Source of the DNA: Pseudomonadota bacterium
GTDB taxonomy: Bacteria > Pseudomonadota > Alphaproteobacteria > UBA9219 > RGZA01
DNA: 32,075 bases
Reading direction: 5' to 3'
Assembly (NCBI GenBank): GCA_016195205.1
Contig: JACQAB010000066.1
Location: 1 to 32,075, forward strand
Shown here: one piece after another, positions 5,382-30,200 of the stretch
Layout of the letters: each line of letters opens with the position of its first letter
How positions within the stretch are numbered: the stretch's first letter is position 1
Made by a program: the position numbers and the translations under genes
Notes under the pieces: generated by a model
What the model saw: the letters and a program-made list of their open reading frames with translations, nothing else
Databases searched by the model: none
Told to the model about the DNA's origin: nothing

Positions 5382-6413
5382 ATGGGCCTTCTTCTTCATC
5401 ACGGCATGGTCGGCGTCGACACTCTTCCCCTTAAGCCCATTTTTCCGCGGGTCTACCCCTTCACGCAAATGGTCAACCGCGTCCTGCTGGATCAGATTGA
5501 TCCTTTTCATTACACGCTTTGCTGCGAGCCCATCGCCGATATTCTTAAGCTTCCCTCCACCCGCAAAAGCTTCGGCGAAGTGGCGGAAGAACGCGCCCAT
5601 GAAATGAAGGCCTATGACGGGCCGCTCTACATTATGTACAGCGGCGGCGTCGACTCCTCCTCGGCGGTGGTGGCATTTCTAAGAACCTGGTCGCCCGAAG
5701 AACTGAAACGCGTTCATATCCTGGCCTCGCATCACAGCGTCAGCGAATTCCCCGAGCTCTGGAACGTCATCGTCGACAAATTCAAGGGACGCATTCTTCC
5801 CTCTTTCCGGCACATCGAATATTACTGCGACCGCGGCTATGTGGTCACCGGTGAGCATGGCGACCAGCTTTTCGGCTCGGACATCATCCGCAACATTTTC
5901 CACATGCATGGCGATGAAGCCATCCACCAGCCCTGGCAACAGGTCATGCCCGGCATCTATGCCAAGATTTTTCCGCCCGAGATCGTGGGCGGTTTCCTCA
6001 CCCGCTACGAACAAACGCTTAGCGCCTGCCCGTTCCCGATACGGACAAGCTTTGACTGGATCTGGTGGTTCAACTTCACCAACAAATGGCAGCACGTGAA
6101 ATACCGCCTGCTGTCCAATAAGCCCTGGCGCAATGCCAGGGAATCCTTCAAGAAGATCAAACATTTTTATGATACGCCGGGGTGGCAGCGCTGGAGCCTC
6201 GACAATCACGATAAAAAAATCGGCAAGCTCTACGAATCCTACAAACTGGCGGCCAAAGAATATATCGTTGGCGCAACCGGATTTTCCGATTACATTCGAA
6301 AGCCCAAGGTGGGTAGCCTGTTTCAGATCTGGCGCTGTACGGGCTTTTACGAAGCCACCGATACGTCGTTTAAACATCTTACCCGCGAAGAAGCCCTGGA
6401 GTATGTGCGATGA
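5382..6413 (+). CDS. Second, divergent PP-loop ATP pyrophosphatase, specificity unknown
   Basis: SGGxDS motif in GPLYIMYSGGVDSSSAVVAFL, preceded by a helix as in Asn-synthetase-C-like domains. Alternative starts at 5337 (TTG) and 5340 (ATG) would overlap the previous gene by 35-38 nt. The stop overlaps the next start (ATGA at 6410-6413). Confidence 0.75.
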   Translation: MGLLLHHGMVGVDTLPLKPIFPRVYPFTQMVNRVLLDQIDPFHYTLCCEPIADILKLPSTRKSFGEVAEERAHEMKAYDGPLYIMYSGGVDSSSAVVAFLRTWSPEELKRVHILASHHSVSEFPELWNVIVDKFKGRILPSFRHIEYYCDRGYVVTGEHGDQLFGSDIIRNIFHMHGDEAIHQPWQQVMPGIYAKIFPPEIVGGFLTRYEQTLSACPFPIRTSFDWIWWFNFTNKWQHVKYRLLSNKPWRNARESFKKIKHFYDTPGWQRWSLDNHDKKIGKLYESYKLAAKEYIVGATGFSDYIRKPKVGSLFQIWRCTGFYEATDTSFKHLTREEALEYVR

Positions 6414-7003
6414 GTGTTTGCATCTATCTTTTCCGCGAGCGCATCATCTACTGGACACCGCAAACGCTTTTTAACAAACCCGCCAGCGTGGGCAGGACAA
6501 AATGGTACATCATCAATGAGGCTGCGCCCATTCCCCTGAATGAAATGGTCCAGCGCGGCAACGTGGGCTATACCCAGCAGGAAGGCTTTTACACCGTGGA
6601 GGGCGACTCGCCCGCGGACTGGGACGAGCGCATCAATCTGGTCAAGAAAATCCAGATTATCGGCGGGCTGAACACCCTGGCGAACAACCACAAATCAAAA
6701 TACACCGACAATTCGCTGGGTCAGGCGCTGGCCGACATTCTGCTGCTGGATGAAATCCGCGAATACCGCCGTACCAACAGCCTGGAAAACTGCGCCATTA
6801 TCACGTCGCTGCTCGAAACCAGCGAAGCCCGGCTCACGCCCGACGCCCTGGTCACCAAATTATGGCTGCAATACGAGTCTTACCGCACCGTGATCGCCTA
6901 TTTAAACCACCTGGAATCCAGTGTCCGGCAATTGCTGAAAGACGACCATTTCGACAAGGCCAATGAACTGCTCGGCAGCGAGCTGGAGAAGCTGAGAACC
7001 TAG
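6410..7003 (+). CDS. Hypothetical protein, translationally coupled to the second PP-loop gene
   Basis: 197-aa ORF whose start overlaps the upstream stop (ATGA). The sequence is protein-like with no motif I recognise, and the C-terminal half looks helical. Confidence 0.6.
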   Translation: MSVCIYLFRERIIYWTPQTLFNKPASVGRTKWYIINEAAPIPLNEMVQRGNVGYTQQEGFYTVEGDSPADWDERINLVKKIQIIGGLNTLANNHKSKYTDNSLGQALADILLLDEIREYRRTNSLENCAIITSLLETSEARLTPDALVTKLWLQYESYRTVIAYLNHLESSVRQLLKDDHFDKANELLGSELEKLRT

Positions 7004-8609: not shown

Positions 8610-8636
8610 TTCGGTTTAGGCATCGTTTTGGTTACA
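8610..8636 (-). promoter_or_regulatory. ECF (SigF/ECF16-like) promoter motif TGTAACC-N16-CGAA upstream of DoxX
   Basis: The minus strand reads aTGTAACCaaaacgatgcctaaacCGAAgg with an exact 16-nt spacer. It is one of three identical-architecture motifs in the window. Confidence 0.6.
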
Positions 8637-9199
8637 TGAATACGGAAAAGAACCCTTTAAATCCTGAAACCGGGAATGAACGGCTGGAAATCCTCATGTC
8701 TCTTGCTCTTGCGGGAGACAGAAAGGCCTATGAGCGGGTTTTGCGCCTTGTTAGCCAGCGGTTAACCGTTTTTCTTGGCCGGAAGCTCCCCGCCAAAGAC
8801 CGCGACGATGTGATGCAGGAGATTTTGCTTTCCATTCATAAGGCCCGCCATACCTACGATCCGGCCAGGCCGCTGATGCCCTGGGTTATGGCCATTGCCC
8901 GCTACCGGATGCATGACCATTGGCGGCGGCATTACGGCCATTCTTTCGATGAAATGGCCGATATTGAGGATTTAAAAAATATTTTGAGCACGGACATAAC
9001 CGAAACCCTTCATGGTAACGAAGATATAAGAAGGATACTTGTGACCTTGCCGGAGCGGCAGCAGGTAATCCTTGAATTGATGTACCGGCAGGACAAAAGC
9101 GTGCGGGAGGTTGCCAAACAGTTAAAAATGAGCGTTTCGGCGGTGAAAGTCGCGGCGCACCGGAGCTACAAGATTTTCCGCAAACATCTGAAAGCGTAG
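8636..9199 (+). CDS. ECF-type RNA polymerase sigma-70 factor (SigF/ECF16-like)
   Basis: 187 aa. Region 2 (DDVMQEILLSIHKARHTYDPARPLMPWVMAIARYRMHDHWRR) and region 4 HTH (LPERQQVILELMYRQDKSVREVAKQLKMSVSAVKVAAHRS). It is followed 5 nt later by a DUF1109-type anti-sigma. An alternative start exists at 8696. Confidence 0.85.
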   Translation: MNTEKNPLNPETGNERLEILMSLALAGDRKAYERVLRLVSQRLTVFLGRKLPAKDRDDVMQEILLSIHKARHTYDPARPLMPWVMAIARYRMHDHWRRHYGHSFDEMADIEDLKNILSTDITETLHGNEDIRRILVTLPERQQVILELMYRQDKSVREVAKQLKMSVSAVKVAAHRSYKIFRKHLKA

Positions 9200-9204
9200 A
9201 AGAA

Positions 9205-9843
9205 ATGTCGAAAACCGATGAAACCATAGGCAGTATTTTAGCTACGGCTACGCCGGTTAAAACAGCGCAGCCCATGCGCCTTTTGCTGGGCTGGCTTGCC
9301 GTGACGGTGGTGGGAACGTTTTTGATGGTGCTGTTCATGGCTCCCCGTGATGATCTTGCCCTGCAACTGGCCTCGCCATTGTTCCTTGCGGAAACAATTC
9401 TCTTGATAGCCCTGATTGTCACTTCGGCATTTGTCGCAGTCTGCCTCTGCTTTCCCGATATGTGTCAAAGGCATTGGATGCTTTATGCGCCGCTCCTGCC
9501 GCTGGCGGCTTATTCTGCGCTGCTCGGCTACCAACTCGTGCATCCGGAAATGGTGGCGCTGCCTGCCGTTAAGATGGGCGGCGTTGATTGCGCCTTATGC
9601 ATCAGCATGTTTGCCGTTATTCCGGGGTTCTGGATGTTTCATATCTTGCACCGCCATGCCACCACCCACCCGATCCTTGCCGGGGCCGTATCCCTGCTAA
9701 CAGCGTCGAGCATCGGGCACCTGGTGCTTAAATTCGTGGAAAAAAACGATGCTATCTCGCATCTGGCCTTATGGCATTTCCTGCCGATCTTGCTGCTGGC
9801 GGCTGTTGGCGCCTTTTTGGGCAGGAAATTTTTATCTTGGTAG
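9205..9843 (+). CDS. DUF1109 / NrsF-like membrane anti-sigma factor
   Basis: 212 aa with about six predicted TM segments and several Cys residues, sitting directly downstream of the ECF sigma. This is the standard partner arrangement of the SigF-NrsF type. Confidence 0.7.
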   Translation: MSKTDETIGSILATATPVKTAQPMRLLLGWLAVTVVGTFLMVLFMAPRDDLALQLASPLFLAETILLIALIVTSAFVAVCLCFPDMCQRHWMLYAPLLPLAAYSALLGYQLVHPEMVALPAVKMGGVDCALCISMFAVIPGFWMFHILHRHATTHPILAGAVSLLTASSIGHLVLKFVEKNDAISHLALWHFLPILLLAAVGAFLGRKFLSW

Positions 9844-10255: not shown

Positions 10256-11122
10256 ATGAATCATTCTGCTTATCCTTATCTTGGCTTCGGGCTTGGCCTT
10301 CGCGCCCCGCATTATGAACAGGTTTTGCGCGAACAGCCTGATGTGGACTGGTTCGAGATCATCTCGGAAAATTTCATCGATGCCCATCAAGGCTATTGGG
10401 ATTATCTTGCCGATCTGCGCTGTGATTACCCGCTGGTGATGCATGGTGTTTCACTGTCCATCGGCAGCCCCGATCCATTGAACCAGGAATATCTGCGCAA
10501 ACTAAAAAAACTGGCGGATTTTATAAAACCGGCATGGCTTTCCGATCATCTTTGCTTCACCGGGCTGGGCGGCCATAACACCCACGATCTGTTGCCTTTG
10601 CCCTATACGCAGGAAGCCCTGCGCCATGTCATTGCGCGTGTGGACGAGGCGCAGGAGCGCCTTGGGCGCGTCATCGTACTTGAAAATCCCTCGACCTATT
10701 TTGAATACCGGCAATCCGAACTGGCGGAGTGGGATTTTTTGCGCGAGTTGGCGAAAGCCACCGGCTGCGGGATTTTGCTGGATGTGAACAATGTTTACGT
10801 CAGCGCCTTCAATCACGGTTTTGATCCGAAAACCTATATCGACGCCATTCCCGCCGAAGCCATCGCCCAAATCCATCTGGCCGGACACAAGAATAAGGGA
10901 ACGCATATCGTCGACACGCATGACGCGCCCGTGATTGAGGATGTATGGGGTTTATACGCCACCACCATCGCGCAAAAAGGCAGTATCAGCACGCTGATCG
11001 AGTGGGATGAAAATATCCCGCCGTTGGCAACCCTGCTTGCTGAAATGGAGAAGGCCCGCGCATTTATTCAAAACAAAACTCCCTCCAAACGCGCCCGTCA
11101 TGACTTACACGAATATGCTTGA
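10256..11122 (+). CDS. DUF692 family MNIO enzyme (MbnB/BufB-like)
   Basis: 288 aa. LGFGLGLRAPHYEQVL...VDWFEIISENF...LVMHGVSLSIGS...PAWLSDHLCFTG...VLENPSTY...LLDVNNVYVSAFNHGFD...IAQIHLAGH is the characteristic DUF692 TIM-barrel pattern. Confidence 0.9.
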   Translation: MNHSAYPYLGFGLGLRAPHYEQVLREQPDVDWFEIISENFIDAHQGYWDYLADLRCDYPLVMHGVSLSIGSPDPLNQEYLRKLKKLADFIKPAWLSDHLCFTGLGGHNTHDLLPLPYTQEALRHVIARVDEAQERLGRVIVLENPSTYFEYRQSELAEWDFLRELAKATGCGILLDVNNVYVSAFNHGFDPKTYIDAIPAEAIAQIHLAGHKNKGTHIVDTHDAPVIEDVWGLYATTIAQKGSISTLIEWDENIPPLATLLAEMEKARAFIQNKTPSKRARHDLHEYA

Positions 11123-11885
11123 GAAAGTGCAGGATTCCATCATCAGCGGCGATGCCGGGGTTGCGGCCCCGTTGGTGCGGCCAAACCCACGGCTTTCAGC
11201 CTCCGCGTTGCTTGGTATTTATATCGAAGGCTACCGGATAAGGCTTTCGCAGGCGGTGCGCTCCGATTATCCCTGTCTTGCCCATTATCTGGGTGAAGAG
11301 CGGATGAATGGGCTGGTTGCCGCCTATGTGAAAAAAACGCCTTCGTGTTCCTATAATCTCGATCACTACCCCTTCGCCTTCCGCCGTTTTGTCGCACAAG
11401 CTTGTGAGGATGAAGCCGCCCATGCGCTGGCGGAACTGGAAGGCGTGATGGCAGAAGTCTTTATGCTGCCGGAAAGCGCGCCGATGGATTTTGAAAGCTT
11501 TGGCAGCCTCGATGCCGAAAGCCTTGGCCGTATGAGCTTTGCATTACGTTCTGCCGGGATGCTCATCCGGCTTGCCTATGACGCGGAAGCTTATTTACAG
11601 GCCTACAAAAAGGGCGAAGCAGAAAAAGATATTCAGAAACGCCCGGCCCATCTCTACCTTTACCGGCACGATAACGAAGTGAAGCGGCAGCAACTTGAGA
11701 TAGCCGAATATCAGGTGTTAAGCGCCCTTGGCCACGGAGAAAGTTTCAGCGCCGCTATTGAAACGGCGCTGGCTTCGCACATTTACGCTGCCGCTGCCTT
11801 GGCAGAAAAAATCCGGTCGTGGCTGCCGAAATGGATCGGGCAGGGCTTCTTCGCCCATACGGAAAGGGTGAAAAAATCGGTGTAA
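11100..11885 (+). CDS. DUF2063 domain protein (MNIO partner, BufC-like)
   Basis: Follows and overlaps the DUF692 gene. N-terminal pattern LLGIYIEGYRIRLSQAVRSDYPCLAHYLGEERMNGLVAAYVKKTP fits DUF2063. The start is ambiguous (11100 or 11115); the track start at 11007 would overlap by 116 nt. Confidence 0.75.
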   Translation: MTYTNMLEKVQDSIISGDAGVAAPLVRPNPRLSASALLGIYIEGYRIRLSQAVRSDYPCLAHYLGEERMNGLVAAYVKKTPSCSYNLDHYPFAFRRFVAQACEDEAAHALAELEGVMAEVFMLPESAPMDFESFGSLDAESLGRMSFALRSAGMLIRLAYDAEAYLQAYKKGEAEKDIQKRPAHLYLYRHDNEVKRQQLEIAEYQVLSALGHGESFSAAIETALASHIYAAAALAEKIRSWLPKWIGQGFFAHTERVKKSV

Positions 11886-15687: not shown

Positions 15688-16617
15688 ATGAACCAGCTGC
15701 GTCTTAAACCGACCCCGCAAAGTCTGCCCACGCCCGCGCAGAAACAGCGTGCCGCGTGTTGGTTCACGGAATTACAGGGGCAATTCTGCGTGGCGCTGGA
15801 AGAGATCGAGCAGGAATATGCCACACAAAAAGGTGGAGCGGTACAAAAATTCCAACGCAAGGATTGGATCCGTGAAACCCACGATAACGTGCCCGGCGGT
15901 GGCGGCAACATGGCCCTGCTCAAAGGCCAGGTATTCGAAAAGGCCGGCGTGAATGCGTCGGAAGTGTTCGGGCAATTTTCAAAAGAGTTTCGCGCACAAA
16001 TCCCGGGTGCCGATGGCGCAGTCGCGGTTGCGCGAAGCGCAGAGCAGTCGCGCCAAGAATATGAAGACGGCGCGTTCTGGGCCGCCGGAATCAGCCTGGT
16101 GGTGCATCCGCGCAACCCGAAAATTCCCGCAGTGCATATGAACACGCGGCACATCGCCACGCGTTTTGGCTGGTTCGGCGGCGTGGCTGATCTGAATCCG
16201 GTTTTCCCCGATGCGCAGGATGTTGAAGCCTTCCACGCCGCGCTGGGGCGCGTTTGCGGCACCGACACCCCCGCCTGGAAAAAGGAATGCGATGAATATT
16301 TCACCATCAAACACCGCAAAAAGCCGCGCGGCGCGGGCGGGGTGTTTTTTGACGATCTGAACCGCGGCGACTGGGAGGCTGATTTCGCTTTGGTCCAGGC
16401 CCTGGGCGAGGCGGTGCTAAAGGCCTATCCGGCCATCGCGCGGCGGCATTTGTTTGAAAGTTACACGCCGGAAGAACGCGAGGCGCAACTGGTGTGGCGC
16501 GGGCATTATGCCGAGTTCAACCTGGTCTATGACCGCGGCACCAAATTCGGGCTGATGACCGGCGGCAATGTCGACGCCGTGCTCATGTCCCTGCCGCCCG
16601 AGGCCAAGTGGCTTTAG
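15688..16617 (+). CDS. hemF: Oxygen-dependent coproporphyrinogen III oxidase
   Basis: 309 aa with GGGGNMALLKGQVFEKAGVN, ISLVVHPRNPKIPAVHMNTRH, RGAGGVFFDDL and YAEFNLVYDRGTKFGL, all typical HemF motifs. It carries an extra segment of about 16 aa (see the repeat at 16016-16054). Confidence 0.95.
   Translation: MNQLRLKPTPQSLPTPAQKQRAACWFTELQGQFCVALEEIEQEYATQKGGAVQKFQRKDWIRETHDNVPGGGGNMALLKGQVFEKAGVNASEVFGQFSKEFRAQIPGADGAVAVARSAEQSRQEYEDGAFWAAGISLVVHPRNPKIPAVHMNTRHIATRFGWFGGVADLNPVFPDAQDVEAFHAALGRVCGTDTPAWKKECDEYFTIKHRKKPRGAGGVFFDDLNRGDWEADFALVQALGEAVLKAYPAIARRHLFESYTPEEREAQLVWRGHYAEFNLVYDRGTKFGLMTGGNVDAVLMSLPPEAKWL
16016..16054 (+). repeat. 39-nt GC-rich element copy inside hemF, in-frame
   Basis: gcgcagtcgcggttgcgcgaagcgcagagcagtcgcgcc matches the reverse complement of 24255-24293 at 38/39 and 21478-21516 at 36/39 (hand alignment). 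It encodes AVAVARSAEQSR in the loop between the conserved IPGA and FWAAGISL. Confidence 0.8.
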
Positions 16618-16623
16618 GTCCCA

Positions 16624-17148
16624 TCAGATAACCGGTACGCCGCCCGTTTTTGGCGGGTTATAGCCCGGAAACAACCCGCCCTGGGAGCGGGTAAAATCAA
16701 CGCGCTCGGGACCGTAGGGAAATATTTCACTTACCAGTTCCAGAACGAGGGAAAGCTGAACATCCGGCAGAGCCTGTTTGTTCGTGAGCGTGGCCCTCAA
16801 CTGTTCCAGTGTTTTTTTCAGCACCTTGCTAGGCGTAGTTGCCGAGGCCCGGAAAACAGGAAGCGCATCGCGCAATGCGTAAAAAGGAATGCGGGTGCTG
16901 CTGAAACGGCGTTTATTCTCATAGGTGGAAAGAAAAACTTCCTGGTTTCTGACTCCAATTTTCAGGGTAAGAAGCCGGTCGGTATGACCGGTGGGAATGC
17001 GCCGTATTTCCGTCAATGCGCTTTTCTTCAACGCTTGTATGGCCGGTTCATCGACAACAATTTTTGCCGCAGCAAGATATTTCCAGACGCTGGGAAGGAT
17101 TTCGATGTCTTCTATGGGTATGGCGGTAGTCGCGCTGGCTTTCGGCAT
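16624..17148 (-). CDS. Hypothetical protein
   Basis: The ORF is 178 aa from a TTG. A GGAG SD lies 6 nt upstream of the ATG at 17148 (MPKASATT...). No recognisable motifs. It is convergent with hemF, 6 nt apart. Confidence 0.5.
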   Translation of the reverse strand: MPKASATTAIPIEDIEILPSVWKYLAAAKIVVDEPAIQALKKSALTEIRRIPTGHTDRLLTLKIGVRNQEVFLSTYENKRRFSSTRIPFYALRDALPVFRASATTPSKVLKKTLEQLRATLTNKQALPDVQLSLVLELVSEIFPYGPERVDFTRSQGGLFPGYNPPKTGGVPVI

Positions 17149-17230
17149 TTTTTGCTCCAAATGAATTGACTATGCCGGGAAAATTAAACGAAACCCAGCG
17201 GCTCGTAAACAGTCTTAATCATTCCAAAAA

Positions 17231-18097
17231 TTAACGGTCTACTTCTTTAAGTTTCGGGCCCAAATCCTCGCGGCGGTCGCGGAAAAACCCAAACGAAGCG
17301 CGGCATTGGCGCAGGAAATCAAGGTCGAAGCGCTGGGTGATCACGCCTTCCTGGATGCCATCCAACTCGGCTACTACCTCACCACGCTGGTCGCAAATGA
17401 AAGACGACCCATAATAGCTTTGCGCCTGGCCAGAAATTTTTTCGGTGCCCACGCGGTTCGCCGCCGCCACCGGCATGGCGTTGCTGACGGCATGGCCCTG
17501 CATGGCGCGCCGCCAGGGATCGCGCGTGTCTAAACCGGCGTCCTGCGGTTCGGAACCGATCGCCGTGGGGTAAAGCAGAATTTCCGCGCCGAGCAACGCC
17601 ATGCCGCGCGCGCATTCCGGAAACCACTGGTCCCAGCAGATGCCCACGCCCACCGCGCCATGCGCCGTGTTCCACACCTTGTAGCCCGTGTTGCCCGGGC
17701 GGAAATAAAATTTCTCGCAATAGCCCGGCCCGTCGGGGATATGGCTTTTGCGGTAAACGCCCATCAGCGCGCCATCGGCGTTCAGCATCGCCACGCTGTT
17801 ATAGTAATGCGGGCCGTCGCGCTCAAAAATCGACACCGGCACGGCCAACTTCAACGCCTTGGCCACCGGCTGCAGTTTTTGCACCGCCGGATGCTCCGCC
17901 GCGGGATAGGCCTGGGCAAACCATTTTTCATCCTGCGTGACGCAGAAATAGGGGCCCTGAAACAGCTCGGGCGGCAGCGCGATTTGCGCGCCGGCCTTGG
18001 CGGTCTTCTCCAGGTAATGCTCGACCTTGGCGATGTTAGCGTTCATGTCTTCGCCAAAACGCGCCTGGATAACGCCGAGGGTAAGGGTTCTTGTCAT
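17231..18097 (-). CDS. aguB: N-carbamoylputrescine amidase (nitrilase/CN-hydrolase superfamily)
   Basis: 288 aa with the catalytic context GVGICWDQWFPE, LPPELF and YRKSHIP. It is adjacent to and co-directional with agmatine deiminase. Confidence 0.9.
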   Translation of the reverse strand: MTRTLTLGVIQARFGEDMNANIAKVEHYLEKTAKAGAQIALPPELFQGPYFCVTQDEKWFAQAYPAAEHPAVQKLQPVAKALKLAVPVSIFERDGPHYYNSVAMLNADGALMGVYRKSHIPDGPGYCEKFYFRPGNTGYKVWNTAHGAVGVGICWDQWFPECARGMALLGAEILLYPTAIGSEPQDAGLDTRDPWRRAMQGHAVSNAMPVAAANRVGTEKISGQAQSYYGSSFICDQRGEVVAELDGIQEGVITQRFDLDFLRQCRASFGFFRDRREDLGPKLKEVDR

Positions 18098-18106
18098 GGG
18101 AGTAAT

Positions 18107-18160
18107 GAGTAGTGAGTAATGAGGAGTGAATCAATACTCACTCCTCATTACTCACTACTC
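18107..18160. repeat. Perfect 23-bp-stem hairpin in the aguA-aguB spacer
   Basis: gagtagtgagtaatgaggagtga / atcaatac / tcactcctcattactcactactc. The arms are exact reverse complements and are internally repetitive (GAGTAATGAG twice). The aguA stop codon (complement of 18155-18157) lies inside the right arm. Confidence 0.85.
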
Positions 18161-19213
18161 GGGCTCCTGCTGCGTGATGCAATGAAACGAGCCGCCGCCG
18201 CTTAAAATCGCATGCGAGGGCAAACCCACCACCTCGCGCCCCGGGAACAGGGGCTTCAGCGCCGACACCGCCTCCTTGCCGCGCGCGTTATACACCGGCA
18301 CCACCACGGTTTTATTGCCGATGATGAAATTCATATGGCTGGCGGCCTGCAGTTCCGGCACCTCGCTGTCGATCCGACCCGGCGAGGGAATGGTGATCAC
18401 CTCCAGATTCATGCCGCGCAGCGCGGTTTCAATTTCTTTCAAGACTGCGGCGTTCGGGTCATCCGCGCCGCTGGCGTGCTGGCAGACCACTTTGCCGGGG
18501 GCGACAAAGCGCGCCAGGTTGTCGATATGCCCGTCGGTGTGGTCGGCGGGCAAGCCGCGCTCGAGCCACAGGATTTTCTCGAAGCCCAGCGCGGTTTTCA
18601 GCGCTTCAGTGGCAGCAGTTTCCGTCCAGCCCTTGTTGCGGTTGGGATTCAGCAGGCATTGGCGGGTGGTGAGGCACAGGCCGTTGCCGTCAAATTCCAG
18701 CGAACCGCCTTCAAGAATGAAATCATGCTTTTGCGTTGGAATATTTGCGGCAGCGGCGATTTTTTCATTCACGCTTTCATCGCCCGGGTAAATAAATTTC
18801 CCGCCCCAGCCGTTGAATTTGAATAGATGCGCAATGGGGGCTGAGGGGCTAGGGGGCTGGGGGGCTGGCAAATCCAATTTTCCCCGAGCCCCCAAGCCCC
18901 CGAGTCCCCGAGTCCCGAATATTGGCCCTGTATCGCGCAGCCAGGTATCGCCATAGGGAATTTCAAAAATTTCGGCGATACCCTTCAATCTTTCCTTGGC
19001 GCTTTGCAGCCCGCCGCCGCAGGCCAGCACTTTTACGTGATCGCCGCCTGACAAGGCGCGGATCATGGCTTCCACCTCGTCCTGCGCCCCTGAAAGCGCC
19101 TCGAACCACGCCTCAGGGTCCCACGGCCAGGCCGTCCAGATGGCCTTATGCGGGGCCCATTCAGCGGGGATGGACGCAGGCGAAGACGGGTTCTGTTTCA
19201 GCGCGGGTTGCAT
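18155..19213 (-). CDS. aguA: Agmatine deiminase
   Basis: 352 aa with WLRDTGPIF, FNGWGGK, HTDGHIDN and the C-terminal GGGSFHCITQQEP catalytic Cys motif. It carries an in-frame repeat insertion (18836-18916). Confidence 0.9.
   Translation of the reverse strand: MQPALKQNPSSPASIPAEWAPHKAIWTAWPWDPEAWFEALSGAQDEVEAMIRALSGGDHVKVLACGGGLQSAKERLKGIAEIFEIPYGDTWLRDTGPIFGTRGLGGLGARGKLDLPAPQPPSPSAPIAHLFKFNGWGGKFIYPGDESVNEKIAAAANIPTQKHDFILEGGSLEFDGNGLCLTTRQCLLNPNRNKGWTETAATEALKTALGFEKILWLERGLPADHTDGHIDNLARFVAPGKVVCQHASGADDPNAAVLKEIETALRGMNLEVITIPSPGRIDSEVPELQAASHMNFIIGNKTVVVPVYNARGKEAVSALKPLFPGREVVGLPSHAILSGGGSFHCITQQEPE
18836..18916. repeat. G-tract/C-tract palindromic element inserted in-frame in aguA
   Basis: gggggctgaggggctagggggctggggggctgg-caaatccaattttc-cccgagcccccaagcccccgagtccccgagtccc is 81 nt (27 codons). 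It encodes GTRGLGGLGARGKLDLPAPQPPSPSAP between the conserved RDTGPIF and FNGWGGK. Confidence 0.8.
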
Positions 19214-19224
19214 TTAAAGACCGA

Positions 19225-19644
19225 TCAGAGCGTGGCCATGATCTGTTTTTTCGCTCTGTATACCGTGGCCAGGTTAGAAAACCCCTCCCGGTTGCTTACG
19301 TCAAGCGCGTTGGCAACCTCGACCGGTGTGGCATTAGAAGTGATTGCGACCGCCAGCCGGTGCGGTGGCCATCCCTTAGCAAGCAGAAACCGGGCATTGG
19401 TCTCAGCTCGGTCAAGTACCCTCCGTAACGCGGCCGCCTGGGCACTGTCCCGGCTCACCAGATATGCTTTCTGGCCCAAGGCAAACGCCCTGGTTTTAAG
19501 CCACGGCCCCAGCCTGCCGGCTTCATAGCGAAGATATTCTCCCCAGTGGCTGCGTCCTTCGAAAACCATCACGTTGGAGGTGACGCAGAACAGGCTTGTC
19601 AGCCTGGCAAAATCCTTATCGGTGCGATTATTTCTTACATCCAT
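19225..19644 (-). CDS. Hypothetical protein (possible C-terminal HTH)
   Basis: 139 aa with SD AGGAGA 5 nt upstream of the ATG. The stop lies 11 nt before the aguA start. No family recognised. Confidence 0.55.
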   Translation of the reverse strand: MDVRNNRTDKDFARLTSLFCVTSNVMVFEGRSHWGEYLRYEAGRLGPWLKTRAFALGQKAYLVSRDSAQAAALRRVLDRAETNARFLLAKGWPPHRLAVAITSNATPVEVANALDVSNREGFSNLATVYRAKKQIMATL

Positions 19645-19733
19645 ATAGCTCTCCTGAAATGCCGGACGAACTTATGGCCTGACTCAACCTGGGGTCAATC
19701 TGAATTATGAGCTTTATACCTTCAAATAGAATA

Positions 19734-19818
19734 GTCATGCCCGCGTAGGCGGGTATCCACGAAAGCCACAGGCTACGGCTTCTGGCCTATCGTGGACCCC
19801 CGCCTACGCGGGGGTGAC
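19734..19818. repeat. Palindromic REP/MITE-like element of about 85 bp
   Basis: gtcatgCCCGCGTAGGCGGGtatCCACGA...TCGTGGacccCCGCCTACGCGGGggtgac. The arms are about 23 nt and nearly perfect. It is intergenic, between the hypothetical gene and the decarboxylase. Confidence 0.7.
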
Positions 19819-19857
19819 ATTGCTTGTGGGGAGGGCTCCCTTAAATGGCAGATATTT

Positions 19858-21273
19858 TTAGAATCCCACCAAGCTTGGCGCGGATTTGCCGTCGCCGTCG
19901 AAGGTGGGCTCGCTTTCCTGCCAGAAGCCCGGCGTGGAAAGCAGCGGGGCGTCGCGCACTTCGACCGGATGGGCCGAGGCGCCGAAGCCGTTGAAGCTGG
20001 ACTGCAGCGCGGCGCTGTAGCCGCCGGTCTGGCCGATTTCGATCCAGTCGCCTTCTTCCACGTCGGCGGGCAGGCTGACGGGCACCTTCAGCGCGTCGAT
20101 GCTGTCGCAGGTTGGGCCCAGCAGGGTGAACTTGGCCATTTTGCTTGAGGGCGTGGGCGCGTCGGGGCGGATCAGGCGCACCGGATAGGTGAGGCGGCTG
20201 ATGCTGGCGTCGAACAAGCCGCCGTATAAACCGTCATTGATGTAAAGCCGGTTTTCCTTGCGCAGATCCACCTTCACCACCAGCGAGCCCGATTCCTGCA
20301 CCAAAGCGCGGCCCGGTTCGCACCACAGCTTGGTTTTCTTGGGCAGCTTCAGGGCTTCGGCGCCCAGGGTGATGGCCTGCATGTAGGAGGCCAGCGAAGG
20401 CGGGGTCAGCCCCGTGAAGCTTACGGGGAAGCCGCCGCCGACATCGACGATGTCGGGGTTGACTCGTGCCAATTGGATCACCTCGCCCACCTGGGCCAGG
20501 GCGGTGGCATAGGCCTCGGGGTTCATCGTTTGCTGGCCCACATGGAAGGCAATGCCGAAGCGCGCGGCCACCTTGCGCGCTTGCGACAGCAATTCCGCCG
20601 CCAGGGGGTTGGCCGCGCCGAATTTGCCCGCGAGGGAATGAAACGCGTGCCCGCCCGAAACCGCCAGGCGCACGATGATGCCCAGGTCTTTGGCGCCGCG
20701 GGTTTCTTCCAGCAGCTTGAACAGCTCCGCCGGACTATCAATCACGAAGTCGCGCACGCCGTAGTGGAAATAGCTTTTGCGGATGGCCTCGCGGCTTTTG
20801 ACCGGATGCATGAAGTGCATCCGCGCCTTGGGGCAAAGCCCGGCCACCAGTTCCACCTCGGCCAGGCTCGCCACGTCAAAGTGGCGCAGGCCCGAGGCCC
20901 AAAGCTGGCGGATCACCAGCGGCGTGGGGTTGGCCTTCACCGCATACATGACGGTGCCGGGGAAATGGCTGAGGAACCATTGGACCGCTGAGTGGATCAC
21001 ATGGCGGCGCACCAGATGGGTGGGTTTTTCGGGGCGGGCCTCGGCCACATAGGCCTGGGTGGCTTCGTAAGACAGGCCGGTACTGCTGCCCAACGGCAGC
21101 GGACGGGAAAGCGCCCTGGCAGCCAAAGCGGCGCGGCGGCTGCCCGAAGGCGCGGAAACGCCCGGCTCAGGCCCGGAGGGCATGAGGTTTTCAGAAGATG
21201 AATCGTAGAAGCGGCTGGACCCTTCCGGTCCAGGAGGCTCTGATTCGTAAACAGGCAGGGATTTGTCGCCCAT
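19858..21273 (-). CDS. Group IV (alanine-racemase-fold) PLP-dependent ornithine/arginine/lysine decarboxylase
   Basis: PLP-lysine motif VMYAVKANP, GGGFPV and the C-terminal LLGPTCDSID motif. SD AGGAGA lies 6 nt upstream of the ATG at 21273; the track start at 21291 is a TTG. There is a long low-complexity N-terminal extension. Confidence 0.85.
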   Translation of the reverse strand: MGDKSLPVYESEPPGPEGSSRFYDSSSENLMPSGPEPGVSAPSGSRRAALAARALSRPLPLGSSTGLSYEATQAYVAEARPEKPTHLVRRHVIHSAVQWFLSHFPGTVMYAVKANPTPLVIRQLWASGLRHFDVASLAEVELVAGLCPKARMHFMHPVKSREAIRKSYFHYGVRDFVIDSPAELFKLLEETRGAKDLGIIVRLAVSGGHAFHSLAGKFGAANPLAAELLSQARKVAARFGIAFHVGQQTMNPEAYATALAQVGEVIQLARVNPDIVDVGGGFPVSFTGLTPPSLASYMQAITLGAEALKLPKKTKLWCEPGRALVQESGSLVVKVDLRKENRLYINDGLYGGLFDASISRLTYPVRLIRPDAPTPSSKMAKFTLLGPTCDSIDALKVPVSLPADVEEGDWIEIGQTGGYSAALQSSFNGFGASAHPVEVRDAPLLSTPGFWQESEPTFDGDGKSAPSLVGF

Positions 21274-21477
21274 CTGGTGTCTCCTCATCAATCGGTACCG
21301 GACTTAAGGCATCCGGCCGCCAACCAACTAAAAGAGACGCGTCGCCACATAAACGCCAGAGGGCCAGGGGTACGTGCGCGTTCGAAGTTATTAAATAAGC
21401 TCCATTCATGAAAATTCAATAAAAATTTTGGGTGGAGAGACATTTTTTTGTGAATCCACCCGGGTGTGTCCCCATGG

Positions 21478-23423: not shown

Positions 23424-26138
23424 TTATTTTCTTAAAACCGCTCCCGCCGCCCTGTGCGCCGCGGCGATGATTTTTTCCGACAGCGCTTCCAGCTCCGCTT
23501 CCGTTAGCGTCTTCTCACGCGGCTGAAAACGCACTTCCAGCGCCAGCGATTTCTGCCCCGGCGCGACATTCGCGCCCTCGTACACGTCAAATACCTCCAC
23601 CCCGGCGATCAGCTGGCGTTCCACGGCGCGGATGGCCTTGACCAGCTTTTCAGCCTCCACCCCCCTGTCCAGCACGAAGGCGAAGTCGCGCCGCACTGGC
23701 TGCAGGTCGGGCAGCTCGAGCAGCGGCCTGGCCGGGCCGGTTTCTTTTAGCGGCGGCAGGGCCTCGAAAAACACCTCAAACCCGGCGGTGGCCGTTTTCA
23801 CTTCCAGCTTCTTCAGGATCGCCGGATGGAGTTCTCCGAAATGAGCCAGCACCGTGGCGCCCAGCTTGAGCACGCCCGAACGGCCGGGGTGATACCAGGC
23901 GGGCGCCTCGGCCACCGCCTGAAGGCCGCCCAGCGGAACCCCCACCGCTTCCAGCGCCGCCAGCGCGTCGGCCTTGGCGTCGAACAGGTCTACCGCGCGC
24001 GGCTCCACCGCCCAGTGGCGCGGCACGGCGAGGCCTGTGCGTAAGCCCGAGGCAGCCATGATCTGCCCCTCGGGCGCGGCGGAGCGGTAGATCGAGCCTA
24101 CCTCGAACAGGGCGGTGTCGGCAAAGCCGCGATCGGCGTTGCGCCGTGCGGCCATCAGCAGGTTGGGAAGAATACTGCCGCGCATGGCGTCCAGCTCGGC
24201 GCTGATGGGGTTCTGCAGAAGAATAGGTTGCGGCTCGCTCTGCGCTCTTATCTCGGCGCGACTACTCTGCGCTTCGCGCAACCGCGACTGCGCTGGCAAC
24301 CGCTCGCTCGCTAAAAAAAGCTTGGCAATAACGGACGGCATGAACGACCAGGTAACCACCTCCAGCAGCCCCCGGGCTGCCAGGGCCTTGCGCGCCGACT
24401 CGCGGCGGCGTTGTTGCAAATTCCATCCAAAAGAAACACCGTCATCCCAGCGCATGCTGGGATCCATGGCCACCGCCTTTCTGCCGGATAGGTTTCTGCC
24501 ATGGATGCCAGCCTTTCCGCCTTCGCTAAAGCTTCGGCGGACGGGCTCGCCCAGACCCTCCGTAGCTTTAGCGAAGGAGGGCGCTGGCATGACATTGCTA
24601 GATGGCAAAGACAGTGCCGGAATTTGATCAAATCCCCTCAGGCGTAAAATCTCTTCCACGCAGTCGGCCTCGCCCTCCAGGTCGGGGCGGGAGGAGGGAA
24701 ATGTTACCTCGAACCCTTCTTCTCCCCTCCCCTTGCCCTCCTTCGCCAAGGCTACGGAGGGCAGGGGGAGGGGAAATCCGGTCTTGCGTTTCACTTCACA
24801 GCCAACGGCTTCCAGTAATTTCTTTTGTTCGTCAGGAGGCACATCCAGCCCGCCGAAACTTTTGCAGCGCGTGGCGCGCAGGAACACGGTGCGGCTTGTA
24901 TCGGGCAGAACGCCGGCCACGATCACCTCGCTGGCCTCGCCGCCACAGGCTTCAAGGATAAGCTGGGTGGCCCACTCGGTCATTTCCACCATGATGGCGG
25001 GGTCGACGCCGCGCTCAAACCGCGTGCGGGCGTCGCTGATGATCTGCAATTTGCGCCCGGCGCGCGCAGTGCGCACGGGATCGAAAGTGGCGCATTCCAA
25101 AAACACTTCGGTGGTCATCTCGGTGCAGCCGGTCTCCATACCGCCCATGATGCCGGCGATGGCCAGGGCTTTTTCATCGTCGGCGATGATGGTGATGCTT
25201 TCATCCAGCACATATTCCTTGCCGTTCAGGGCCAGGAGCTTCTCCCCCGCACGGGCGGGGCGGGCATGCACATCGCCCTTCACCTTGGCGGCGTCGAACA
25301 CATGCAGCGGGCGGGCGGCATCAAATGTCAGATAGTTGGTAATATCGACTAGCGCCGAGATGGGCCGCAGGCCAATCGCTTTCAGCTTGCGCTGCAGGGC
25401 CTCAACCGATGGGCCATTTTTCAAGCCACGAAGGGTGCGGCCAATGAAGTAAGGGCAGGCGTTTTTGTCGGCGGGGCCGAAATCCAGTTTGATGCCGCGC
25501 GGGCTTTTGAATTTGCCTTTCACCGGCTGGGTTTTGCGCGGTTTCAGCCTGCCCAGGCCCGAAGCTGCCAGATCGCGCGCGATGCCGTAAACGCCGAAGC
25601 AATCGGGGCGGTTGGGGGTGAGCTTCACCTCGAACACCGCGTCATCCAGCTCCTGGGTGTCGACGAAAGATTTTCCCACCGGCGCGTCGGCGGGGAGTTC
25701 GATAATCCCTTCATGCTCTTCGCTGAGCAGCAGCTCTTTGGCCGAGCACAGCATGCCGCGCGATTCCACCTCACGGATTTTCGAGATTTTCAGCACCGTG
25801 CCGCTGGCCGGGATCACCGTGCCGGGCGCGGCGAACACGCCCTTCATGCCCGCACGGGCATTGGGGGCGCCACATACCACCTGAACTTTTTCGCGCCCTG
25901 TGTCGACGATGCACAGCTTCAGCCGGTCGGCATTGGGATGTTTCTCGGTGCTTTCCACATAGGCCACGATGAACGGCGCCAACGCCGCCACCGGGCTGGA
26001 AAGGCTTTCCACCTCCAGGCCCAGCCAGGTGAGCTTTTCGGCGATTTCCTTGGCGGAAGCCGTGGTTTCGAGGTGTTCCTTAAGCCAGGAGAGGGTGAAT
26101 TTCATGGAGTCCCGTTTTAACCTTATAGCCCGTTGCAC
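23424..26138 (-). CDS. pheT: Phenylalanine--tRNA ligase beta subunit
   Basis: 904 aa. N-terminal tRNA-binding domain (MKFTLSWLKEHL...HPNADRLKLCIVD), B3/4 and B5 regions, NPISAELDAMRGSILPNLL and a C-terminal anticodon-binding-like domain. It is roughly 100 aa longer than the beta subunits I remember, which is accounted for by three repeat insertions. Confidence 0.95.
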   Translation of the reverse strand: MQRAIRLKRDSMKFTLSWLKEHLETTASAKEIAEKLTWLGLEVESLSSPVAALAPFIVAYVESTEKHPNADRLKLCIVDTGREKVQVVCGAPNARAGMKGVFAAPGTVIPASGTVLKISKIREVESRGMLCSAKELLLSEEHEGIIELPADAPVGKSFVDTQELDDAVFEVKLTPNRPDCFGVYGIARDLAASGLGRLKPRKTQPVKGKFKSPRGIKLDFGPADKNACPYFIGRTLRGLKNGPSVEALQRKLKAIGLRPISALVDITNYLTFDAARPLHVFDAAKVKGDVHARPARAGEKLLALNGKEYVLDESITIIADDEKALAIAGIMGGMETGCTEMTTEVFLECATFDPVRTARAGRKLQIISDARTRFERGVDPAIMVEMTEWATQLILEACGGEASEVIVAGVLPDTSRTVFLRATRCKSFGGLDVPPDEQKKLLEAVGCEVKRKTGFPLPLPSVALAKEGKGRGEEGFEVTFPSSRPDLEGEADCVEEILRLRGFDQIPALSLPSSNVMPAPSFAKATEGLGEPVRRSFSEGGKAGIHGRNLSGRKAVAMDPSMRWDDGVSFGWNLQQRRRESARKALAARGLLEVVTWSFMPSVIAKLFLASERLPAQSRLREAQSSRAEIRAQSEPQPILLQNPISAELDAMRGSILPNLLMAARRNADRGFADTALFEVGSIYRSAAPEGQIMAASGLRTGLAVPRHWAVEPRAVDLFDAKADALAALEAVGVPLGGLQAVAEAPAWYHPGRSGVLKLGATVLAHFGELHPAILKKLEVKTATAGFEVFFEALPPLKETGPARPLLELPDLQPVRRDFAFVLDRGVEAEKLVKAIRAVERQLIAGVEVFDVYEGANVAPGQKSLALEVRFQPREKTLTEAELEALSEKIIAAAHRAAGAVLRK
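24255..24293 (-). repeat. 39-nt GC-rich element inside pheT, in-frame, in a different frame from hemF
   Basis: The reverse complement matches hemF 16016-16054 at 38/39. It encodes AQSRLREAQSSRA within ...FLASERLPAQSRLREAQSSRAEIRAQSEPQPILLQNPIS. Confidence 0.8.
24441..24580. repeat. Block of two palindromic elements inside pheT, in-frame
   Basis: gtcatcccagcgcatgctgggatccatgg (24441-24469) plus ccttcgctaaagcttcggcgg...ccgtagctttagcgaaggagg (24520-24580). Together they encode about APSFAKATEGLGEPVRRSFSEGGKAGIHGRNLSGRKAVAMDPSMRWDDG. Confidence 0.75.
24723..24774. repeat. 52-nt palindromic element inside pheT, in-frame
   Basis: tcccctccccttgccctcc-ttcgccaaggctac-ggagggcagggggagggga encodes about FPLPLPSVALAKEGKGRGE. 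Confidence 0.75.
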
Positions 26139-28492: not shown

Positions 28493-28499
28493 GAAACAA

Positions 28500-28570
28500 G
28501 TGATTGGTTTTTAGTGATTAGTTTTTAGTGGAATAACATCACTAACCACCAATCACTAAAAACTAATCAC
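28500..28570. repeat. Hairpin with a 31-bp imperfect stem filling the pheS-glycerate kinase spacer
   Basis: gtgattggtttttagtgattagtttttagtg / gaataacat / cactaaccaccaatcactaaaaactaatcac pairs at 27 of 31 positions (hand count). The arms are tandem GTGATTRGTTTTTA words. The last pheS codons and the stop lie in the right arm. Confidence 0.8.
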
Positions 28571-29657
28571 CCAACACTGAAAACCCATAATGCCGCAGCC
28601 AGCGCAAATCGGCCTCGAAGAAGGTTCTTAAATCGGGAATGCCGTATTTCAGCATCGCCAGGCGCTCGACGCCCATGCCGAAGGCGAAACCCTGGTATTT
28701 GGCAGGGTCGATGTTGCAATTGTTCAGCACCTTGCCATGCACCATGCCGCAGCCCAGCACCTCCAGCCAGTCGTCGCCCTCGCCGATTTTTATTTTGCCG
28801 CCGGGGCGTGAGCAGCCGATATCAACCTCGGCCGAAGGCTCGGTGAACGGGAAGTAAGACGGGCGGAAACGCACCTTCAAATCGGGCACGCCGAAAAAAC
28901 CGCGCAGGAAATCCATCAGCACGCCCTTCAGATGGCCCATATGGGTAGTCTCGTCGATCACCAAGCCTTCCACCTGATGGAACATGGGAGCGTGGGTCTG
29001 GTCGAAATCGCGGCGGAACACGCGTCCCGGCGCCAGGATGCGGATCGGCGGCTTGCTTTGCAGCATGGTGCGCACTTGGACGGGAGAAGTGTGAGTGCGA
29101 AGAACCATGGGGGCTTGGGGGCTTGGGGACTCGGGGTTCGAGCTTTCCAACCCCCCAGCCCCCGAGTCCCCCAGCCCCAGATAAAACGTATCCTGCATCT
29201 GGCGCGCCGGATGGTCAGGCGGCATGTTCAAGGCCGCAAAGTTATAAAAATCGCTCTCGATGTCGGGGCCTTCGGCAACGCTGAAACCCAGCGGCGACAG
29301 CAGCGCCACGATATCGGCGATGGTGCGGGAAATGGGGTGGATCGCGCCCTTGTCTTCCGGGCGCACACTTAAAGTGACATCGGCTTTTTCCGACATCAGC
29401 CGCGCATCCAGCGCCGCCGTGCCCAGCTTGGCCTTGCGCGCCTCGATCAAATTTTCCAGCTCGGACTTCAGCACGTTGATGCGCGCGCCGAAATCCTTGC
29501 GCTCGGTTTCCGGCAGGGTGCCCAGCGTTTTCAGAAGCTCGGTGACGCGGCCCTTTTTGCCCAGGGCCGACACGCGCGCCTCTTCCAGCGCGGCGATGTC
29601 ATTCGCGGCCTCGACGGCCTGCTGGACTTCGGATTTAAGGGTGGAGAGGTCCGTCAT
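28563..29657 (-). CDS. pheS: Phenylalanine--tRNA ligase alpha subunit
   Basis: 364 aa with ALGKKGRVTELLKTLG, HPARQMQDTFY, LRTHTSPVQVRTM, FHQVEGLV, FRPSYFPFTEPS and GFAFGMGVERLAML. It carries an in-frame repeat between DTFY and LRTHTSPVQ. Confidence 0.95.
   Translation of the reverse strand: MTDLSTLKSEVQQAVEAANDIAALEEARVSALGKKGRVTELLKTLGTLPETERKDFGARINVLKSELENLIEARKAKLGTAALDARLMSEKADVTLSVRPEDKGAIHPISRTIADIVALLSPLGFSVAEGPDIESDFYNFAALNMPPDHPARQMQDTFYLGLGDSGAGGLESSNPESPSPQAPMVLRTHTSPVQVRTMLQSKPPIRILAPGRVFRRDFDQTHAPMFHQVEGLVIDETTHMGHLKGVLMDFLRGFFGVPDLKVRFRPSYFPFTEPSAEVDIGCSRPGGKIKIGEGDDWLEVLGCGMVHGKVLNNCNIDPAKYQGFAFGMGVERLAMLKYGIPDLRTFFEADLRWLRHYGFSVLGD
29109..29178. repeat. G-tract/C-tract palindromic element inserted in-frame in pheS
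   Basis: gggggcttgggggcttggggactcgggg-ttcgagctttccaa-ccccccagcccccgagtcccccagcccc encodes GLGDSGAGGLESSNPESPSPQAP. It belongs to the same family, orientation and reading frame as the aguA copy. Confidence 0.8.
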
Positions 29658-29660
29658 GGC

Positions 29661-29728
29661 GGGACTGGGGACTGGGGACTGGGAACTTGAGAAACTTTAC
29701 TAGTCCCCAGTCCCTGATCCCTAGTCCC
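29661..29728. repeat. Inverted arrays of the heptamer GGGACTG in the rplT-pheS spacer
   Basis: gggactggggactggggactggg-aacttgagaaactttac-tagtccccagtccctgatccctagtccc. It ends 4 nt upstream of the pheS ATG, and a T-run follows on the + strand only. Confidence 0.8.
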
Positions 29729-29732
29729 TTTT

Positions 29733-30107: not shown

Positions 30108-30126
30108 GGTTTTCTCCTTGAAATTA

Positions 30127-30200
30127 GGGGCTGAGGGGCTGGGGGACTCGGGGGGATTAAACTTTTTCTCAACCCCTTAGCCCCTGAGTCCCTTAGCCCC
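30127..30200. repeat. G-tract/C-tract palindromic element in the rpmI-rplT spacer
   Basis: ggggctgaggggctgggggactcgggggg-attaaactttttctcaa-ccccttagcccctgagtcccttagcccc uses the same word family as the copies inside aguA and pheS. Confidence 0.8.

Follow-up and report, generated by a model that had tools for sequence, protein, structure and literature searches.

A palindromic repeat with tandem G-rich and C-rich arms translated in a length-variable loop of PheS in an uncultured alphaproteobacterium

Repeat DNA that is read through as protein has been described in Rickettsia. In PMC10969869, which summarises Ogata et al. (2000), Rickettsia palindromic elements (RPEs) are reported as in-frame insertions in many housekeeping genes, adding extra peptide segments at positions compatible with the protein fold, with about half of the copies lying inside genes. 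Other short repeats are known for their design or their mobility. G-rich heptamer repeats, such as GGGAATC in Xanthomonas and GGGGA(C/T)T in Nostoc (the cyanobacterial STRR), occur as convergent inverted pairs and have been reported as under-represented within coding sequence (Rehm et al., 2015, PMC4692102). REP and REPIN elements are mobilised by RAYT transposases, and REPINs insert into existing REPINs (Bertels and Rainey, 2011, PMC3116915). [quoted passage not shown] Here we describe a hairpin repeat found in frame within pheS, the gene for the phenylalanine-tRNA ligase alpha subunit, on contig JACQAB010000066.1 (“the window”: the whole stretch analysed, a complete metagenome contig of 32,075 bp and 57% G+C), and we ask how it relates to these systems.

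The host gene lies at 28563..29657 on the minus strand and encodes a protein of 364 aa, recognised from its open reading frame (ORF), from Pfam (PF02912 and PF01409) and from matches to bacterial PheRS alpha chains in the PDB (E down to 3e-114). Within it, translation, inverted-repeat and fold analysis place a G-rich/C-rich hairpin repeat at 29109..29178 (minus strand), of which bases 29109-29177 encode PheS residues 161-183 (GLGDSGAGGLESSNPESPSPQAP), flanked by DTFYL and MVLRTHTSPVQ. A first-pass annotation made from the sequence alone had proposed an in-frame repeat between DTFY and LRTHTSPVQ of this essential gene, and the ORF, the translation and the inverted repeat all agree with it. As written on the plus strand, the G-rich arm (29109..29136) reads GGGGGCTT GGGGGCTT GGGGACTC GGGG, a tandem array of 8-nt units, and the C-rich arm (29147..29178) is likewise a tandem array, of CCAGCCCC-type units; bases 29118-29136 of the first pair with bases 29160-29178 of the second, giving an inverted repeat with arms of 19 nt that are 95% complementary. 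The G-rich arm holds at least four G-tracts of at least four G each and is a candidate G-quadruplex. Folded as RNA of the gene strand, the element has a stability of -54 kcal/mol (z = -4.7), which none of 200 dinucleotide shuffles equalled. The window holds 10 occurrences of the motif GGGGVCTNGGGG where 0.12 would be expected, and each of them falls in one of three loci (the aguA, pheS and rpmI-rplT copies discussed below). Together, the motif count, the fold z-score and the complementarity of the arms show that the observation is real and far beyond chance.

The repeat sits in a part of PheS that can evidently vary. The columns that are invariant among 36 aligned PheS sequences are all kept in the window protein (HPAR, RT.TSPVQ, FHQ.EG, FPFTEPS and GFAFGMG..R among them), and in the PDB matches the proteins of Pseudomonas aeruginosa and Escherichia coli align to it with a 20-residue gap at the insert. 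Only four or five residues separate the flanking strands in those two species, and Thermus thermophilus PheS naturally has 21 residues between DTFWL and LLRTHTS (confirmed by an identical match, 1b70_A residues 143-224). An AlphaFold2 model of the window PheS (mean predicted local distance difference test score, pLDDT, of 67) renders residues 164-180 as coil with pLDDT below 50, flanked by strands at 156-160 and 185-187. Taken together, the 21-residue Thermus loop, the low-pLDDT coil and the retained invariant residues show that the loop between DTFYL and VLRTHTS is a permissive, naturally length-variable surface loop. The insert is placed four residues upstream of the conserved THTS strand. 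With the invariants of the catalytic core untouched, the insert appears to be tolerated in an essential gene.

Three sibling copies accompany it, making four G-rich copies in 32 kb, every one with its G-arm on the 5′ side. The first, at 18836..18916 (minus strand; unit, fold and alignment analysis), lies in frame in an ORF of the agmatine deiminase family (aguA, 18155..19213; PAD_porph E = 1e-98) and encodes GLGGLGARGKLDLPAPQPPSPSAP. The second is intergenic, between rpmI and rplT (30126..30200; unit, fold, frame and alignment analysis), and aligns to the pheS G-arm without gaps. The third, built of GGGGACT heptamers, occupies the rplT-pheS spacer from stop codon to start codon (29661..29729; inverted-repeat, unit and fold analysis). 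In pairwise alignments the G-rich copies are 72-76% identical and their unit order is conserved. This identity and shared order support placing the pheS, aguA and rpmI-rplT copies in one repeat family, as the first-pass annotation had held. Among G-rich copies in the window and in eight related loci (L081-L088) that were not selected for polarity, the G-arm was 5′ in six of six; the opposite polarity, though it would be equally stable, was seen in none.

Relatives show what the loop looked like without the repeat. The closest relative found, on a 1.97-Mb JGI contig (locus L081), has a PheS (P0003) that is 77-79% identical to that of the window. The two loci are syntenic across malic enzyme (85% identical), rpmI, rplT, pheS, a DUF4147 gene, pheT, the decarboxylase gene and aguA. 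In the comparison with a close relative lacking the insert, as proposed in the first-pass annotation, the L081 loop is APEGGGEP, 8 residues, against 23 in the window. A neighbour-joining (NJ) tree of 35 related PheS sequences, built with the loop left out, places the window as sister to insert-free P0003 and points to an ancestral 8-residue loop (PGxxGxEP) that has undergone at least eight separate expansions. Since the L081 loop still resembles the ancestral consensus and the window has lost it, loss in L081 cannot explain the pattern, which is most simply accounted for by separate gains at a permissive site.

The DNA of the pheS loop was examined in eleven relatives, of which nine have an expanded loop; the expansions are of several kinds. 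In L084 the loop carries a G-rich element of the window’s own family with its loop partly deleted; in L083 it carries a G-arm/C-arm element made of other units (z = -4.5); in L085 it is a near-perfect hairpin of GGTTGCGA-type 8-mers (z = -11), and in L210 a weaker palindrome (z = -3.1). A different repeat, GAGCGGTTG...CAGAGCGA, which encodes ASERL...QSEP, fills the loop in L086, L087, L088, L209 and L211. The aguA site is reused as well: L083 has an insert at the window’s aguA position that is made of its own GAAGGTTC unit. Indeed this genome-specific 8-nt unit (GAAGGTTC/GGAGGTTC) recurs in L083 at 5884-6004, 6224-6358 and 6716-6857 besides the aguA insert (within 16237-17319), so that it occupies the window’s intergenic spots and its aguA site. 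In the rplT-pheS spacer of L084 (9887-9998), a hairpin of GAGTAGT heptamers is nested inside the loop of a hairpin of GGGGCTA heptamers; the outer element shares the start of its loop, ...CTAGTAAA, with the window copy. In one PheS homologue, a 490-aa protein (P0002, on a 2.8-kb JGI contig), about 130 residues of the catalytic core are present twice, which may be a misassembly or a real tandem duplication.

The first-pass annotation had gone further, reading the pheS and aguA copies as inserted in the same orientation and reading frame and supposing that a copy survives in coding regions only if it lands in the open frame and orientation. This part did not hold up. The flipped alignment of the two copies scores 38 against 32 for the unflipped one, and a palindrome with its G-arm first reads G-arm first from either strand, so that a Gly-rich segment followed by a Pro/Ser-rich one is expected whichever way it is inserted. 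In register, pheS is read GG|GAC|TCG and aguA G|GGA|CTC|G; because 8 is not a multiple of three, successive 8-nt units pass through all three phases, and a shared frame is ill-defined. The intergenic rpmI-rplT sibling, said to contain a stop codon in the corresponding orientation and frame, is in fact open, on the gene strand, in the frame homologous to the pheS reading and closed in the other five, so one frame in six is open there, compared with three in six for the aguA copy and all six for the pheS copy. In pheS, therefore, any frame or orientation would have been open. The peptide pattern (Gly-rich, loop, Pro/Ser-rich) follows from runs of G (GGN codons) giving way to runs of C (CCN and NCC codons), and it is present in every frame of the pheS copy, which removes it as evidence for a selected module.

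Openness is a compositional property of many of the units. GGGGCTG, GGGGCTT, GGGGACTC and their complements are stop-free in any phase, and no unit containing CTAG, CTAA or TTGA can ever be translated. In a set of 77 distinct G-arm-first hairpins from metagenomes, most of them intergenic, at least one frame is open in 79%, three or more in 47% and all six in 12%. All that is really required of a copy is stop-free units and a net length divisible by three; arms of 7- and 8-nt units sample every reading frame, and “frame bias” is not meaningful as a test.

The pheS segment is probably a copy of a dispersed, non-autonomous palindromic repeat that persists in a length-variable loop as a tolerated passenger. 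The insert, the family relationships of the copies, the absence of the insert from the sister lineage and the recurrent use of the loop are direct observations. The family would be a mostly intergenic one whose arms are tandem 7-8-nt G-rich units (GGGGCTN or GGGGACTC), the G-rich arm always 5′. A copy may have arrived by insertion, entering or replacing the short PheS loop between the DTFYL and VLRTHTS strands; with a net change that is a multiple of three and with stop-free units, it would be translated as a flexible, disordered Gly/Ser/Pro-rich surface loop, and the enzyme would still work. Its persistence would then reflect the tolerance of the loop, not a particular frame, orientation or peptide function, and the insert would be neutral at the protein and RNA level. 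Mobility is indicated by the dispersed homologous copies, by the families common to the window and L084, and by the L084 nested hairpin, which itself looks like a sign of movement.

Several observations weigh against this reading. The nearest relative, at 77-79% identity in PheS, gives no empty site at nucleotide resolution; the four copies show no recognisable target-site duplication and no terminal signature or end tag; and no transposase domain was found among 30 ORFs scanned on the 32-kb contig. With only 72-76% identity among them, the copies bear no sign of recent transposition, and the insert replaces the ancestral 8-aa loop rather than simply interrupting it. The AlphaFold2 model is only moderate in confidence overall, and neutrality at the protein and RNA level is presumptive. 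Finally, repeated landings in exactly one loop could reflect targeting or growth in place instead of a selective filter. A related possibility, to which we give little weight, is that tandem-armed hairpins form a distinct class of small element, separate from RPEs, REPINs and MITEs, with genome-specific 7-9-nt units and a fixed polarity, generated or moved by a mechanism that targets existing hairpin loops and a few structure-prone sites. If so, the PheS and AguA loops and the stop-to-start spacers would have been hit repeatedly in this clade of uncultured Alphaproteobacteria by targeting, and not by selection alone.

Growth in place deserves to be set out in full. Here the hairpin would have arisen through slippage of 7-8-nt units, with the arms kept complementary by template switching in a quasi-palindrome and with no mobile copy involved. 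Such an origin fits arms that are tandem arrays, the lack of target-site duplications at the copies inspected, the replacement of the ancestral loop, and the finding that the same intergenic and coding sites carry hairpins of different units in different lineages. What makes it rather unlikely is that the copies at four window loci share their unit order and can be aligned in register with no gap, a match not to be had from local growth at each site independently; that the window and L084 have the same family at several loci; that the nested hairpin of L084 looks like an insertion; and that the sister locus L081 offers no intermediate stage. One cost of carrying the element is that gain or loss of a single 8-nt unit would be expected to frameshift this essential gene; slippage should be less frequent in the pheS copy, whose units are imperfect.

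A function for the segment, either as a hairpin or RNA G-quadruplex that regulates translation or mRNA stability of pheS or as a Gly/Pro-rich loop with a role in PheRS, is less probable still. The very stable RNA fold (-54 kcal/mol), a G-arm with at least four G-tracts like those of repeats that form G-quadruplexes in vitro (PMC4692102), the position four residues from the THTS strand and the related hairpins flanking genes of the same operon would all suit such a role; yet the insert is missing from the sister lineage and from most relatives, unrelated sequences take its place in other lineages, the loop sequence is not conserved, and the peptide is of low complexity and modelled as disordered. 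One ancient insertion common to the window, L084 and L083, followed by precise loss in L081 and other relatives, has in its favour that the window and L084 inserts align well at one site (DSGAGGLESSNPESPSPQA and DSGTGGLGDSEPPSPPAAQ). We consider it very improbable, as the NJ tree puts the window beside insert-free P0003 (L081) and L084 elsewhere, many precise losses would be needed, and deletion could not have restored the near-ancestral PGxxGxEP loop that L081 has kept and the window no longer has. Misassembly can also occur at palindromes and tandem repeats, and the window is a single metagenome contig; an assembly artefact at the palindrome is nevertheless hardly credible when the reading frame and both conserved flanks are intact and comparable inserts occur at the same site in independent assemblies from other samples.

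The window holds further hairpins in which the same design appears without the G-richness. An AT-rich hairpin of GAGTAAT/GAGTAGT heptamers with a perfect stem of 23-25 bp (z = -12) extends from the stop codon of aguA as far as the beginning of the carbon-nitrogen (CN) hydrolase gene (18100..18160), and another, of AGTGATT/AGTTTTT heptamers (z = -6.5), takes in the last codons and the stop of pheS and finishes 6 nt short of the following gene (28499..28584); both were recognised from inverted repeat, units and fold. Because their architecture is identical, the common design is a hairpin with arms of tandem 7-8-nt units, not G-richness or a quadruplex. Both are knitted into coding sequence: the final GAG codon and TAG stop of aguA are part of the first GAGTAGT unit, and the last codons (VLGD) and TAG stop of pheS (28563-28584) lie within the AT-rich heptamer hairpin. 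These two and the copy at 29661-29729 fill spacers between co-oriented genes, from the stop codon to 3-6 nt before the next start. None of the CN-hydrolase, DUF4147 and pheS genes has a visible Shine-Dalgarno sequence, and the stem of a spacer hairpin would juxtapose stop and start codons, which suggests termination-reinitiation coupling. A conserved regulatory structure in the rplT-pheS spacer was considered and rejected, the hairpin being absent from L087 and the elements in L086 and L088 being unrelated. A scan for terminators and promoters gave no enrichment, with no hairpin qualifying as an intrinsic terminator on the gene strand, and Rfam at the gathering threshold found only a tRNA in the window.

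Long hairpins are dense in the window, which has 3.4 of them per 10 kb. The figure is 0.76 per 10 kb for 1.32 Mb from the pheS loci of other Alphaproteobacteria, a control taken from a scan of a genome collection for PheS (among the matches listed, relatives at most 65% identical). No G-arm-first hairpin and no tandem-armed hairpin was found in that 1.32 Mb, where counts of tandem-armed hairpins are lower bounds, the strict-periodicity filter having missed copies with mixed 7/8-nt units. In 21 kb of L081 there was likewise none.

The neighbouring subunit gene has also taken up repeats. The product of pheT (23424..26138, minus strand) is 904 aa long against 794-800 aa in three relatives, and the excess of about 104 aa falls into three in-frame blocks that derive from three or more further families of palindromic repeat; two of the blocks are still strong hairpins. 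None of the families is that of the pheS element. One block, found by alignment and fold at 24717..24776 (minus strand) and not in the three relatives, encodes FPLPLPSVALAKEGKGRGEE and is a TCCCCTCCCC...GGGGAGGGGA palindrome (z = -8.7). Another (24423..24587, minus strand; alignment and fold), also not in the three relatives, consists of two adjacent palindromic repeats of the SFAKATEG..RRSFSEGG and KAGIHG..MDPSMRWDDG types. The third (24234..24314, minus strand), known from alignment and from related copies in relatives, encodes LASERLPAQSRLREAQSSRAEIRAQSE and is a decayed copy of the GAGCGGTTG..CAGAGCGA family that has lost its stable hairpin. An intergenic GTCATGCCCGCGTAGGCGGGTATCCA-type palindrome at 19734-19818 belongs to the family translated as KAGIHG..MDPSMRWDDG inside pheT and has relatives in L083 (7970-8044) and L084 (20666-20736). 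The contig is generally permissive to in-frame repeats of several palindromic families.

Beyond these loci the class is widespread. The pattern GGGGVCTNGGGG, 3-33 nt, CCCCNAGBCCCC was found in at least 120 metagenome contigs, mostly from soil and of 60-70% G+C, and hairpins with GGGGACT/GGGGCTN tandem arms are very common in soil metagenome contigs (L089-L208), many with untranslatable CTAG units. Most of the metagenome copies have no spanning ORF, as against two of four inside genes in the window. After filtering on codon-position G+C and checking with Pfam, in-gene copies were verified in four loci: L160 has one in the linker that joins the two GTPase domains of Der/EngA, L113 and L170 each have one upstream of a PSP1 domain, and L174 has one following the TRCF domain of Mfd, at its C-terminus. 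Translated copies therefore exist elsewhere but are a small minority. A match in MnmA (L180) was not counted as an insertion, its RRGLGV segment of 11 residues being too short for a full element; RRGLGV there presumably resembles a native MnmA motif. Matches near FtsW (L127) and a metallo-beta-lactamase (L120) are located upstream of the domain hits and probably do not fall within the genes.

Other genes of the window deserve brief mention. A polyamine gene set (17231-21291) comprises a pyridoxal phosphate-dependent Orn/Arg decarboxylase, aguA and the CN-hydrolase (likely an N-carbamoylputrescine amidase), and adjoins pheST in relatives too. At 10256-11885, an enzyme of the MbnB/TglH/ChrH family that modifies ribosomally synthesised and post-translationally modified peptides (E = 1e-109) stands beside a DUF2063 protein, just downstream of an extracytoplasmic function (ECF) sigma factor and an NrsF anti-sigma factor (8636-9843).

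How, then, does the pheS element compare with the systems described above? Like MITEs, which are small, non-autonomous and occasionally fused in frame to host ORFs, it is present in multiple dispersed copies (the four G-rich ones in 32 kb). MITEs, however, have an internal region bounded by defined terminal inverted repeats, and they have target-site duplications; neither is recognisable at the window copies. REPINs are likewise inverted doublets, some 70-100 nt in length, that fold into long hairpins and are dispersed, non-autonomous and found in genome-specific “flavours”; they also build clusters when one element inserts into or beside another, an arrangement that the nested hairpin of L084 resembles. 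But REPINs are extragenic, and a REP is an imperfect palindrome of 20-40 nt with a GTAG/CGTC-type end, whereas the window arms are one-sided G- or C-rich arrays with no internal palindrome or tag. Because the arms are not themselves palindromes, the element is not a REP.

In sequence design the element is closest to the G-rich heptamer inverted repeats and the cyanobacterial STRR. It shares with them tandem G-tract units with 3-4-nt spacers, about four units to an array, paired with a complementary array into a potential stem-loop; the known repeats lie mostly between co-oriented genes and the metagenome hairpins mostly outside any spanning ORF, and the window copy at 29661-29729 uses GGGGACT itself. 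It differs in that two of the four copies in the window are read as protein, including one within an essential gene, and in that its units are mostly 8 nt (GGGGGCTT, GGGGACTC) and 7-8 nt overall rather than strictly 7; the window’s AT-rich hairpins (GAGTAAT, AGTGATT), moreover, cannot form G-quadruplexes.

Wherever such elements are translated, they carry a warning for annotation: Gly-rich-then-Pro-rich low-complexity segments in the proteins of these metagenome-assembled genomes are read-through repeat DNA and not domains. The PheS loop beside the active-site strand, as a landing pad for several unrelated repeat families, offers a natural map of insertion tolerance in an essential aminoacyl-tRNA synthetase. 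It is in this behaviour that the element comes closest to the RPEs, being a short, hairpin-forming alphaproteobacterial palindrome that lies in frame in otherwise intact genes, with the conserved residues of both pheS and aguA kept. RPEs are about 100-150 bp long and have family-specific conserved peptides, whereas the window elements are 70-81 nt, with a purely compositional peptide and differing phases; the likeness, drawn from published descriptions, is thus one of behaviour but not of size or conserved peptide. The host differs as well, belonging not to Rickettsia but to an uncultured lineage of free-living type with 57% G+C. The locus would extend the Rickettsia-type phenomenon, in which selfish palindromes are translated within housekeeping proteins, to repeats of a different architecture in an unrelated lineage of uncultured Alphaproteobacteria.

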